A DNA stretch of 64,000 nt from Eledone cirrhosa. Lineage: Eukaryota. Under the pieces are notes generated by a model. It was not told the origin of the DNA. It saw only the letters and a program-made list of their open reading frames with translations, and did not search any database. Location: contig OZ024742.1 in the NCBI GenBank assembly GCA_964016885.1, positions 326,492,001 to 326,556,000 of the forward strand, in the 5' to 3' direction. The position numbers and the translations under genes were made by a program. Of this stretch, positions 10,227-42,042 are shown piece by piece; position 1 is the stretch's first letter; each line of letters opens with the position of its first letter.

Positions 10227-10298
<72 letters not shown>

Positions 10299-10398
10299 CT
10301 AGTCCTGTAGAAGCCATTTCTATATTAAATATTTATACTCTGCTATGTATTAAGTACCTTATTTACTGTGGTTAACCCCGATTCTACCCGGGATAAAG

Positions 10399-10432
<34 letters not shown>

Positions 10433-10706: not shown

Positions 10707-10742
10707 TCTTGACGTTTCGGACACTAGACCTTCATCAGAAGA
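10707..10742 (-). ncRNA. Minimal Penelope-type hammerhead motif
   Basis: TCTT-CTGATGA-AGGTCTAGTGTCC-GAA-ACGT-C-AAGA; palindromic ACGT stem III, GTC triplet. Confidence 0.75.
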
Positions 10743-13129: not shown

Positions 13130-13200
13130 TGACGTACATGGGAGTCGAACCCACATCTTTGGTTATCCAGACCACTGTGCTACCATTACACCAACACATC
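13130..13200 (-). ncRNA. tRNA-like cloverleaf (anticodon-position GGA, short variable loop) embedded in a repeat; not a canonical tRNA gene
   Basis: GATGTGT/GTACGTC acceptor, GTGT/GCAC D-stem, TGGT/ACCA stem with CTGGATA loop, GTGGG/CCCAT T-stem with TTCGACT loop. Confidence 0.75.
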
Positions 13201-17173: not shown

Positions 17174-17527
17174 TGCATGTATGTATAAATTTCCTTTGAA
17201 TTCAGTAAATGGAAGGATTAAAGTATTCCTCTTTTACTTTACAAATCATATCTTTTGTTTTCGATTTTCTTTCTCCTACTTTCTCTCTCTCTCCCCCTCT
17301 CTCTCTCTCTCTCTCTCTCTCCATCTCTCTCTCTCTCCCTCCCTCTCTCTCTCTATCATTCTCTTTGTTTCTCTCTCCCTCTTTATCACAAACAAACATT
17401 GATTTTATTATATGTATATATATATAAATGTTGGAGTCTCTCGTCGAAAATGACGTGTGGGTGTTCAGCAGAAGATAAAGCAAATGCAAATCCAAGGCAA
17501 GAACCAGTTGGTGGATTTTTAACAAAG

Positions 17528-17892
17528 TTAATTGTTTCTACTTTTGGCACAAGGACAGCAATTATCCCAGTTCATTACTGGTACTTTATTTTATCGACCC
17601 CGTAAGGATGAAAGGCAAAGTTAACCTCGGTGGGATTTGAACTCAGAACATAAAGGGGCGTAACTCTATGCTGCAAAGCATGGCGTCCGACCTTCTTTTT
17701 AACAAAGATAATTGTTTCTACTTTTGGCACAAGGCCAGAAATTATATCAGTATATTACTGGTACCTTATTTTATCGACCTTGTAAGGATGAAAGGGAAAG
17801 TTAACCTTGGCGGGATTTGAACTCAGAATGTAAAGGGAAATAACTCTATGCTGCAAAGCATGGCGTCCAACCCTTTACTGATTCTGCCAATC
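17528..17892 (-). mobile_element. Two tandem Nin/Deu-core SINEs sharing a triplicated target site
   Basis: Copies 17528-17695 and 17710-17892; ttttaacaaag(t/a)taat occurs at about 17517, 17697 and 17893. Confidence 0.9.
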
Positions 17893-23164: not shown

Positions 23165-26100
23165 GTGTTGTTGGTAGTGTAGTCCTTCCTGGCGGTGGCG
23201 GTGGTGTGTGGTGGCGGTGAGGTTGTTGGTGGTAGTGTAGTCCTTGCTGGCGGTGGCGGTGGTGTGTGGTGGCGGTGAGGTTGTTGGTGGTAGCGTAGTT
23301 CTTGCTGGCGGTGGAGGTGGTGTGTGGTGGCGGTGAGCTTGTTGGTGGTAGCGTAGTTCTTGCTGGCGGTGGAGGTGGTGTGTGGTGGCGGTGAGGTTGT
23401 TGGTGGTAGCGTAGTTCTTGCTGGCGGTGGAGGTGGTGTGTGGTGGCGGTGAGGTTGTTGGTGGTAGTGTAGTCCTTCCTGGCGGTGGCGGTGGTGTGTG
23501 GTGGTGGTGAGGTTGTTGGTGGTAGCGTAGTTCTTGCTGGCGGTGGCGGTGGTGTGTGGTGGCGGTGAGGTTGTTGGTGGTAGTGTAGTTCTTGCTGGCG
23601 GCGATGGGGTGTGGTGGCGGTGAGGTTGTTGGTGGTAGCGTAGTTCTTGCTGGCGGTGGAGGTGGTGTGTGGTGGCGGTGAGGTTGTTGGTGGTAGTGTA
23701 GTCCTTCCTGGCGGTGGCGGTGGTGTGTGGTGGCGGTGAAGTTGTTGGTGGTAGTGTAGTTCTTGCTGGCGGCGGTGGGGTGTGGTGGCGGTGAGGTTGT
23801 TGGTGGTAGTGTAGTTCTTGCTGGCGGCGGTGGGGTGTGGTGGCGGTGAGGTTGTTGGTGGTAGTGTAGTTCTTGCTGGCGGTGGCGGTGGTGTGTGGTG
23901 GCGGTGAGGTTGTTGGTGGTAGCGTAGTTCTTGCTGGCGGCGGTGGGGTGTGGTGGCGGTGAGATTGTTGGTGGTAGTGTAGTTCTTGCTGGCGGCGGTG
24001 GGGTGTGGTGGCGGTGAGGTTGTTGGTGGTAGTGTAGTTCTTGCTGGCGGCGGTGGGGTGTGGTGGCGGTGAGGTTGTTGGTGGTAGCGTAGTCCTTGCT
24101 GGCGGTGGCGGTGGTGTGTGGTGGCGGTGAGGTTGTTGGTGGTAGTGTAGTTCTTGCTGGCGGCGGTGGGGTGTGGTGGCGGTGAGGTTGTTGGTGGTAG
24201 TGTAGTTCTTGGTGGCGGTGGCGGTGGTGTGTGGTGGCGGTGAGGTTGTTGGTGGTAGCGTAGTTCTTGCTGGCGGCGGTGGGGTGTGGTGGCGGTGAGA
24301 TTGTTGGTGGTAGCGTAGTTCTTGCTGGCGGCGGTGGGGTGTGGTGGCGGTGAGGTTGTTGGTGGTAGTGTAGTTCTTGCTGGCGGCGGTGGGGTGTGGT
24401 GGCGGTGAGGTTGTTGGTGGTAGCGTAGTCCTTGCTGGCGGTGGCGGTGGTGTGTGGTGGCGGTGAGGTTGTTGGTGGTAGTGTAGTTCTTGCTGCGGCG
24501 GTGGTGGTGTGTGGTGGCGGTGAAGTTGTTGGTGGTAGCGTAGTCCTTGCTGGCGGTGGCGGTGGTGTGTGGTGGCGGTGAGGTTGTTGGTGGTAGCGTA
24601 GTTCTTGCTGGCGGCGGTAGTGTGTGGTGGCGGTGAAGTTGTTGGTGGTAGTGTAGTTCTTGCTGGCGGTGGAGGTGGTGTGTGGTGGCGGTGAAGTTGT
24701 TGGTGGTAGCGAAGTTCTTGCTGGCGGTGGAGGTGGTGTGTGGTGGCGGTGAAGTTGTTGGTGGTAGCGAAGTTCTTCCTGGCGGCGGCGGTGGTGTGTG
24801 GTGGCGGTGAGGTTGTTGGTGGTAGTGTAGTTCTTGCTGGCGGCGGTGGGGTGTGGTGGCGGTGAGGTTGTTGGTGGTAGTGTAGTCCTTCCTGGCGGCG
24901 GTGGGGTGTGGTGGCGGTGAGGTTGTTGGTGGTAGTGTAGTTCTTGCTGGCGGCGGTGGGGTGGGGTGGCGGTGAGGTTGTTGGTGGTAGCGTAGTTCTT
25001 GCTGGCGGCGGTGGGGTGTGGTGGCGGTGAGGTTGTTGGTGGTAGTGTAGTTCTTGCTGGCGGCGGTGGGGTGTGGTGGCGGTGAGGTTGTTGGTGGTAG
25101 CGTAGTTCTTGCTGGCGGCGGTGGGGTGTGGTGGCGGTGAGGTTGTTGGTGGTAGTGTAGTTCTTGCTGGCGGCGGTGGTGTGTAGTGGCGGTGAGGTTG
25201 TTGGTGGTAGCGTAGTTCTTGCTGGCGGTGGCGGTGGTGTGTGGTGGCGGTGAGGTTGTTGGTGGTAGCGTAGTTCTTGCTGGCGGCGGTGGGGTGTGGT
25301 GGCGGTGAGGTTGTTGGTGGTAGTGTAGTTCTTGCTGGCGGCGGCGGTGGTGTGTAGTGGCGGTGAGGTTGTTGGTGGTAGCGTAGTTCTTGCTGGCGGC
25401 GGCGGTGGGGTGTGGTGGCGGTGAGGTTGTTGGTGGTAGCGTAGTTCTTGCTGGCGGTGGCGGTGGTGTGTGGTGGCGGTGAGGTTGTTGGTGGTAGCGT
25501 AGTTCTTGCTGGCGGTGGCGGTGGTGTGTGGTGGCGGTGAGGTTGTTGGTGGTAGCGTAGTTCTTGCTGGCGGTGGCGGTGGTGTGTGGTGGCGGTGAGG
25601 TTGTTGGTGGTAGCGTAGTTCTTGCTGGCGGTGGCGGTGGTGTGTGGTGGCGGTGAAGTTGTTGGTGGTAGCGTAGTTCTTGCTGGCGGCGGCGGTGGGG
25701 TGTGGTGGCGGTGAGGTTGTTGGTGGTAGCGTAGTTCTTGCTGGCGGCGGCGGTGGTGTGTGGTGGCGGTGAGGTTGTTGGTGGTAGCGTAGTTCTTGCT
25801 GGCGGCGGCGGTGGTGTGTGGTGGCGGTGAAGTTGTTGGTGGTAGCGTAGTTCTTGCTGGCGGTGGCGGTGGTGTGTGGTGGCGGTGAGGTTGTTGGTGG
25901 TAGCGTAGTTCTTGCTGGCGGTGGCGGTGGTGTGTGGTGGCGGTGAGGTTGTTGGTGGTAGCGTAGTTCTTGCTGGCGGTGGCGGTGGTGTGTGGTGGCG
26001 GTGAAGTTGTTGGTGGTAGCGTAGTTCTTGCTGGCGGCGGCGGTGGGGTGTGGTGGCGGTGAGGTTGTTGGTGGTAGCGTAGTTCTTGCTGGCGGCGGCG

Positions 26101-26485
26101 GTGGTGTGTGGTGGCGGTGAGGTTGTTGGTGGTAGCGTAGTTCTTGCTGGCGGCGGCGGTGGTGTGTGGTGGCGGTGAAGTTGTTGGTGGTAGCGTAGTT
26201 CTTGCTGGCGGTGGCGGTGGTGTGTGGTGGCGGTGAGGTTGTTGGTGGTAGTGTAGTTCTTGCTGGCGGTGGCGGTGGTGTGTGGTGGCGGTGAAGTTGT
26301 TGGTGGTAGTGTAGTCCTTCCTGGCGGCGGCGGTGGTGTGTGGTGGCGGTGAAGTTGTTGGTGGTAGCGTAGTTCTTGCTGGCGGTGGCGGTGGTGTGTG
26401 GTGGCGGTGAAGTTGTTGGTGGTAGTGTAGTTCTTGCTGGCGGCGGCGGTGGTGTGCGGTGGCGGTGAAGTTGTTGATGGTAGTG
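23165..26485. repeat. GT-rich minisatellite, about 58 units of 55 or 58 bp
   Basis: Unit ggtggtagYgtagttcttgctggcgg(Ygg)cggtggKgtgtggtggcggtgaRgttgtt; period confirmed by the 2-nt shift per 60-nt line. Confidence 0.97.
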
Positions 26486-30893: not shown

Positions 30894-30984
<91 letters not shown>

Positions 30985-31012
30985 GCGATATGTATATACC
31001 ATTTATTTATAC

Positions 31013-31072
<60 letters not shown>

Positions 31073-31138
31073 ACATATATATATGCGATATGTATATGTA
31101 TATATGATAAATATATAAATATATATATATATATATAC

Positions 31139-31205
<67 letters not shown>

Positions 31206-31343
31206 ATATATATATATGTATATATGCGTATGTATATACGATATATATATATATATATATACGTTATTCCGGGTTGAGTCGGAGGTAACCACAGTAAGTA
31301 AGGTACTCAATACATTGCAGAGTATAAAAGTTTTAATATAGAT

Positions 31344-31396
31344 GAGATTCTACAGGACTAGAACTGTTTCATTCTTTAGAAATCATCAGGAATCTC
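31344..31396 (-). ncRNA. Type I hammerhead ribozyme motif, identical inverted copy
   Basis: Exact reverse complement of 31398-31450. Confidence 0.85.
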
Positions 31397-31397
31397 A

Positions 31398-31450
31398 GAG
31401 ATTCCTGATGATTTCTAAAGAATGAAACAGTTCTAGTCCTGTAGAATCTC
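31398..31450 (+). ncRNA. Type I hammerhead ribozyme motif (canonical core)
   Basis: Stem I GAGATTC/GAATCTC; core CTGATGA; stem II T-TTCT-AA-AGAA-T; GAAA; stem III ACAG/CTGT with an 8-nt loop; cleavage triplet GTA. Confidence 0.85.
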
Positions 31451-31464
31451 ATCTATATTAAAAC

Positions 31465-31497
<33 letters not shown>

Positions 31498-31528
31498 ATG
31501 CGATATATATATACGATATATATATATA

Positions 31529-31594
<66 letters not shown>

Positions 31595-31705
31595 GATATA
31601 TATATATACGATGTATATATGTGTGTACATATATGCATGTACCTACATATATATTTACATATATACATTTCGTAACATTCTCTGTTTCTGCCTCGCTCTC
31701 CCCGT

Positions 31706-41703: not shown

Positions 41704-41752
<49 letters not shown>

Positions 41753-41939
41753 CGAAGGAGGTGTGGTAAGGAACCAGATGGACCGTAATGCACCAGAGTA
41801 CTCAATACTTAGGGTAGTAAAGTGGGTAATAGGAAAATGTTTAACCCCGACGGCAGAGCTCAAACCGTTTCGACGGCTATTTCTGGACTCAGAAATAGCC
41901 GTCGAAACGGCTTGAGCTCTGCCGTTGGGGTTAAACATT

Positions 41940-42042
<103 letters not shown>

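Follow-up and report, generated by a model that had tools for sequence, protein, structure and literature searches.

An asymmetric palindrome between two (TA)n tracts

The window, i.e. the whole stretch of 64,000 nucleotides of Eledone cirrhosa DNA that was analysed, is part of a 3.0-Gb genome. Its longest perfect palindrome outside simple repeats consists of two arms of 68 bp each (31329-31396 and 31398-31465), which are exact reverse complements around the single base A31397; pairing breaks at position 69, and the runner-up has arms of 21 bp. The perfect fold-back with a 1-nt loop that had been proposed from the letters of the window is, thus, present as described, and so is the continuation of the minus arm beyond the palindrome, which ends at about 31260. 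(TA)n tracts lie on both flanks (30896-31261 and 31465-31665) and a target-site duplication is unreadable within them. The copy has neither an ORF nor a promoter. A relative had been placed at 10297-10410; the alignment covers most of it and 10400-10410 is already (TA)n. All features are listed in Table 1, in which base 31396 of the minus arm is unit 1.

Table 1 The palindrome, its parts and its relative in the window
Feature	Positions	Strand	Description
Long arm	31260..31395	-	Unit 2 to about 137; 100% match to many genomic copies
Short arm	31399..31465	+	Unit 2-68; exact reverse complement of the long arm
Junction C-A-G	31396..31398	+	Untemplated G at the 5' end of each arm, one base between; the template has C
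One-sided tail	31260..31328	-	Unit 69-137; between two inferred reverse-transcription starts
Type I hammerhead motif	31398..31450	+	Core 31405-31411 and 31424-31427; predicted cut after 31443; read from the sequence
Type I hammerhead motif	31344..31396	-	Mirror of the plus-strand motif; predicted cut after 31351
(TA)n target tract, left	30896..31259		Repeat annotation
(TA)n target tract, right	31466..31665		Repeat annotation
5'-truncated subfamily B copy (older)	10298..10399	+	Unit 35-136; 84.6% over 104 nt; between (TA)n

A second fold-back, from another family, lies at 41752-41944 and has the same asymmetric anatomy, with the long arm on the minus strand and a short arm ending in (CT)n. It has a 21-bp perfect core (41865-41910), its turn is inside a hammerhead-like stretch, and look-alikes are found in the flanks of three loci (L027, L029 and L035). 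The tails of both fold-back families have GTATTGAGTAC in common, at 31301-31311 (-) and at about 41801-41811 (-), and a one-letter variant occurs close to the end of another Hydra element, the entry that precedes Hydra-1_Obim in the supplement of PMC8557442. This sequence is a candidate for a protein-binding signal between the two start sites. The window also contains minimal hammerhead-like cores in other repeat families, at 10738(-), about 340 nt from the subfamily B copy, 16305(-), 18996(-), 34163(+) and 42354(+), a tRNA-like sequence at 13130-13200 (-) with an Rfam score of 49.7 bits, a G-rich 58-bp minisatellite at 23166-26483 (58 copies, 94% matches) and two tandem copies of a 180-bp repeat at 17516-17872.

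The parent is a Penelope-like element

Longer copies of the family have about 480 nt of unique sequence upstream of the unit, then a microsatellite and, still further upstream, an ORF in the sense of the hammerhead. This partner ORF has the motifs RWR, DKT, YRDD, CxCx5C (CNCLNKGAC), IVY..YIG, CDLC (CxxC) and CMH (CxH); its GIY-YIG part contains one cysteine and no CCHH. In one copy (L075) YRDD and IVY..YIG lie in one frame, so that a single ORF has the order reverse transcriptase (RT), then GIY-YIG. The GIY-YIG match in Pfam is weak (E 4e-4 to 9e-4, under the curated cut-off), no RT profile in Pfam or PDB matched the partner ORF (best PDB E 0.05), and a homolog search with the ORF returned 13 proteins, none of which bears a Penelope element name. 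The RT assignment, therefore, is by motifs and likeness to Hydra proteins. For the Hydra clade, RW[K/R], DKT, CxCx5C, the lack of CCHH, CxxC and CxH are given as the motif set in PMC8557442; the partner ORF has the whole set, with RWR as a variant of RWK. By motifs and by its likeness, judged by eye, to Hydra-1_Obim, the parent is almost certainly a Hydra-type Penelope-like element.

In tandem copies the unit follows a promoter region and runs into an ATG at unit ~183; therefore, it is the 5' end of the transcription unit as well as the 3' end of the pLTR. As expected of a pLTR, the same sequence is found at the 3' end of the element and ahead of the ORF. The long arm comprises the hammerhead and 5' UTR and stops about 46 nt short of the ATG. 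The window copy and the family loci lie in (TA)n, and inverted 5'-truncated copies with a one-sided tail, here of about 68 nt, are found. The original prediction had called the palindrome a product of retrotransposition; it holds, and the arms are the promoter-proximal 136 and 68 nt of a Penelope-like retroelement. Three of the 30 ORF-bearing copies (L095, L111 and L112) begin at unit ~143-146, by TTTTAG, which may point to stalling or to a splice acceptor; these positions adjoin, on the downstream side, the first inferred reverse-transcription start.

The hammerhead motif

The hammerhead corresponds to unit 1-53, with stem I at 1-7/47-53, the core at 8-14 and 27-30, stem II at 16-18/23-25, stem III at 30-33/42-45 and the predicted cut after 46. 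The core letters are complete on both strands (CUGAUGA, GAAA, a 4-bp stem III and the GUA site), and read by eye the motif is of type I (CUGANGA, GAAA, UH and three stems). The claim of an intact hammerhead with a 7-bp stem I holds for these letters and has to be revised for the rest. Stem I has 6 bp in the parent element, and the seventh pair comes solely from the untemplated G, where the template has C. Stem II has 3 bp and is closed by U·U at 10.1/11.1 in both subfamilies; the G10.1-C11.1 pair, called highly conserved in the available text of PMC4209133, is lacking. Rfam returned no hammerhead family at gathering score, nor one among the 58 matches at E<=10; miRNA matches in Rfam were below their own cut-offs and were rejected as a reflection of the hairpin. 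For the monomer the active fold is predicted at -7.1 kcal/mol, 3.4 above the minimum of -10.5, and has an ensemble share of 0.0015; loop III (CUAG) would allow pairing between two hammerhead copies according to the fold computation. Between the subfamilies stem I differs by two compensatory double changes (AGAUUC/GAAUCU versus GGCUUC/GAAGCC), and loop II varies with stem II kept. "Intact" thus applies to the core letters, and self-cleavage is a prediction at most.

It had also been suggested that a transcript could form either the ribozyme or the long hairpin. The whole palindrome folds at -123.6 and -119.6 kcal/mol, and since read-through RNA from either side would make the antisense arm first and the hairpin has a folding energy of about -120 kcal/mol, the hairpin is predicted to win. 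Because the window copy lacks a promoter and read-through RNA would fold as a long hairpin, its hammerhead is predicted to be a passenger that is uncut when copied.

Fold-backs are common in the family

An exact-pattern search of the genome gave at least 284 exact tip-to-tip junctions, and the reversed pattern, used as control, gave 0. In a search with the long arm the best 40 matches were 99-100% identical and 24 more were inverted partial arms adjoining them; its query is biased towards G at position 1, and it was therefore disregarded when the tips were counted. The tail by itself is a query without selection for the structure of the 5' end; it yielded 40 loci, of which 36 were independent, the window copy included. 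Here, five duplicated loci with common flanks (L152-L156) were counted once; they lie within 0.5 Mb (C4:204.1-204.6 Mb) and are likely a local segmental duplication. An adjacent inverted arm was present in 23 of the 36, an inverted fragment in one, and 12 had none within about 1 kb. Both tips were at unit 2-11 in 16 of the 23. Thus, the mapping of turn points that had been proposed as a check reveals a family-wide turn near the start of stem I. Short arms stop at unit 56-70, and the tail is on one arm only in nearly all fold-backs, including 8/8 mapped long inverted insertions; one locus with tails on both arms (L230) is the exception. One fold-back stub with the same 3-nt tip (L086:6300-6505) is nested in the 3' UTR microsatellite of its own parent element.

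Of 60 fold-backs, a sample enriched for window-like copies, 33 have identical arms over unit 12-56 and 27 have arms that differ; in L025 a subfamily variant is on a single arm of the fold-back. The zero mismatches in the window had been taken as a sign of either a very recent event or homogenisation of the arms. With identical arms in 33 and divergent arms in 27, homogenisation is needless and the perfection of the window copy therefore reflects its youth. The window palindrome is a young stub, ordinary in kind and probably inert.

Further evidence, at the level of the family and not of this locus, comes from raw reads of three other samples and the contigs of a fourth run, all reduced-representation libraries in which both subfamilies are pooled. 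Depth in the raw reads rises 6- to 12-fold at the start of the unit and drops steeply after unit 137, loose read ends accumulate ahead of unit 4-5 and after units 68, 134 and 137, and strand-switch joints (5-5, 5-8, 5-23 and 7-23 in unit positions) were seen in all four runs, at few start sites each.

The turn point coincides with the predicted transcription start

TATA and CCAAT boxes are promoter motifs and YYANWYY is an initiator motif. In 51 of the 56 copies that keep upstream sequence, which are relatives and not independent tests, TATAAA(T/A)A starts exactly 30 nt above unit 2. A CCAAT box lies about 50 nt above the TATA box, and unit 2 is within a match to YYANWYY; the rough joint chance is 8e-5. 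Subfamily B has the same TATA spacing in the single promoter seen (L207). The transcription start is, therefore, predicted at the turn-point base, unit 2.

The letters at the tip are not those of the template, which has C at unit 1. Among 50 listed junctions of family A, the tip was C-A/T-G in 21, a single C or G in 14 and a longer C..G in six; counted from the same list, five had the templated C on both arms and four were of other kinds. An untemplated G on both arms is thus present in 27 of the 50. In subfamily B, C-A/T-G was found in 4 of 14 junctions and no insert in another 4. Two of the 50 listed junctions, and also L030 and L031, contain letters that were copied from stem I on its 3' side. 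Copying from there was rejected as the source of the extra G in the common junction because the tip C of subfamily B is given neither by the upstream template nor by the 3' side of stem I. An untemplated 5' G has been ascribed to copying of the cap in L1 and SVA (PMC3287187, accessible part), and by analogy the untemplated G on both arms is likely a copied cap. On this reading the RNA would start at unit 2 with a cap, and each arm would be a run-off copy of it.

The strand of the long cDNA reads C-A-G in 20 of 28 cases. This polarity is not fully reliable because the centre base is flipped between L124 and L126, two contigs with one insertion; the orientation of the centre base was, accordingly, dropped as proof of independent origin.

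One cDNA or two

How are the two arms made? We consider it fairly probable that they are two cDNAs of one capped RNA, joined head-to-head at the predicted start. The original prediction had favoured snap-back self-priming. In the present family a single cDNA from ~+136 would then reach the 5' end of the RNA and copy itself by fold-back, and the second target strand would anneal at +56-70. Private variants are common to both arms in 5/5 long pairs, the closest of which has 1 mismatch in 472 nt. They point to one template or source, which is in line with snap-back and also with two polymerases on one RNA that start at the two tail-bounding sites. The single-C/G junctions (14/50 listed) fit a snap-back with a 3-nt loop equally well, and a few junctions switch via stem I or stem II, so that stem-guided switching does occur. 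Moreover, such palindromes have been interpreted as self-priming before (PMC3846280, in the part available). However, a snap-back has to begin on the long cDNA, so that no short arm should extend beyond its long arm on the 5' side. Judged by the ends of the BLAST alignments, the short arm extends beyond the long one by 4 nt or more in 8 of 23 fold-backs and the reverse holds in 4, while in 11 the two ends differ by no more than 3 nt; in L170 the long arm covers unit 67-137 only and the short arm -205 to 68. Of eight long inverted insertions, each with one end at ~136 and the other at 68-74, four have the greater length in the arm that ends at 68-74. Sequence absent from the long arm is, thus, present in the short arm of both kinds of insertion, and this asymmetry includes the pair with a single mismatch, although a later deletion could shorten either arm and imitate it. 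Snap-back would also require that three bases in agreement with the fold were added to give the C-A/T-G tip, and this in two subfamilies whose stem I differs. Of the two readings snap-back is the weaker and, on balance, unlikely.

The turn-around at the boundary of the ribozyme had been taken as a hint of snap-back. Another reading is that cleavage or structure of the hammerhead, and not the transcription start, sets the turn point. Indeed, stem I begins with the tip base in both subfamilies, and in a second element in L026 the long arm begins near the cut site. Start site and start of stem I coincide in both subfamilies, and position alone therefore cannot separate them. However, the turn is 45 nt upstream of the cut site, and cleavage would give a 5' end at unit 47 and not at unit 2, whereas most tips are at 2-11. 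Furthermore, neither the TATA spacing nor the untemplated G would be explained, and an element of Anolis was inserted in vitro without cleavage (PMC11167929, available part). The ribozyme boundary as the cause of the turn is, therefore, improbable.

We also regard it as very improbable that the fold-backs descend from one palindromic master that spread as a non-autonomous element. One identical 81-nt junction at at least 27 loci would be in line with this, but the subfamily background of this junction varies, with both arms showing the corresponding variants (L053 and L128), short-arm ends range from 56 to 70, many other junction types exist and the window copy has no promoter. Perfect fold-backs are a known library artefact, and for one insertion two contigs disagree on the centre base. 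Against an artefact stand at least 284 junctions at one position, diverged arms in 27/60 fold-backs and the strand-switch joints (unit 5-8) found in raw reads from three other samples and among the contigs of a fourth run. The palindrome is, therefore, unlikely to be an artefact, and an assembly or amplification chimera is hardly credible.

A model for the formation of the palindromes

For the two-cDNA reading we propose the following model. The pLTR promoter would start an RNA at the first base of stem I of the hammerhead, which would then be copied without being cleaved. The protein of the element, supposedly acting as a dimer, would nick both target strands in the (TA)n tract, and reverse transcription would be primed at two fixed internal sites, at ~+134-140 and at +56-70. 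Both cDNAs would run off the capped end of the RNA and thereby copy the cap. The trailing long cDNA would add one base, usually A, and switch to the displaced short cDNA at its 3' end; the insertion would thereby be closed as an asymmetric palindrome. C-A-G on the strand of the long cDNA, as seen in the majority of cases, is expected if the long cDNA adds A and jumps to the short cDNA. Both start sites are close to the 5' end of any transcript, and the majority of products would therefore be short. That inverted ends and the one-sided tail arise in this way from one reaction has, in our view, an even chance of being right.

Comparison with known systems

Statements on published systems refer to the accessible portions of the papers cited. 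The window family resembles the Hydra clade (Craig et al. 2021, PMC8557442) in the order RT then GIY-YIG, the motifs RW[K/R] and DKT, the CxCx5C linker, the lack of a cysteine pair within GIY-YIG, a CxxC and a CxH towards the end of the protein, the hammerhead in the pLTR and the (TA)n target. The partner ORF is co-linear by eye with Hydra-1_Obim (supplement of PMC8557442), but the same by-eye comparison indicates a different family that has RWR for RWK and is clearly diverged. In contrast to the Hydra clade, the 3' UTR of the window family carries a long microsatellite.

Inverted 5'-truncated copies, a one-sided tail and (TA)n targeting have been described for Penelope-like elements (PMC8557442). 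Their inverted pLTRs are like the present fold-backs in the head-to-head truncated copy, the palindrome at the junction and the one-sided tail (PMC8557442, PMC3846280), and the pLTRs have a TATA box and an Inr-like motif, as here. However, in the window family usually no more than the first 68-136 nt of either copy are left, and the tail is about 68 nt compared to the published 30-40 nt. The junction palindromes have been read as self-priming on an antisense template (PMC3846280).

For Poseidon of Anolis carolinensis, both target strands were extended in vitro from two internal sites bounding the tail (Frangieh et al. 2024, PMC11167929). AT-rich targets, an uncut RNA as template and two tail-bounding starts are as inferred here, but the starts of Poseidon are inside the ORF and those of the window family in the 5' UTR. 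The available part of that paper contains no explanation of inverted copies.

Metazoan non-LTR retrozymes are short, non-coding and derived from Penelope-like pLTRs, with a type I hammerhead (bioRxiv 10.64898/2026.07.22.740005). They are head-to-tail tandem repeats, whereas the present copy is a head-to-head stub of an autonomous element, and no tandem array was found at the palindrome locus. Hammerhead pairs on opposite strands, 100-700 bp apart, have also been described (PMC4209133).

A related case is the 5' inversion of L1, with which the window family can be compared at the level of priming. In L1 twin priming both target strands prime on one RNA, which leaves a 5' inversion; each of the two cDNAs represents a different part of the RNA, and the position of the second site varies. 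In the window family, in contrast, the second site hardly moves and one and the same 5' stretch is present in two copies.

What the fold-backs would mean

The formation of tandem and inverted ends of Penelope-like elements is called unresolved in the available text of PMC8557442. The layout as such is already known, and our data suggest that the new part is the tip at the predicted start with a cap-like G on both arms; this was not reported in the accessible portions of PMC8557442 and PMC3846280, and a search of the open-access literature gave no paper in which the tip is linked with the start site, a cap-like G is reported on both arms or the mechanism is stated. The family thus provides evidence, at the level of the junction, for a sense, capped template that is copied twice, as opposed to self-priming on an antisense template (PMC3846280), and the two-cDNA reading predicts exact products in vitro. 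If the proposed reaction is true, the C-A/T-G tip would be its fingerprint, of which the family holds hundreds of natural products, and the hammerhead would begin at nucleotide +1 of the transcript.
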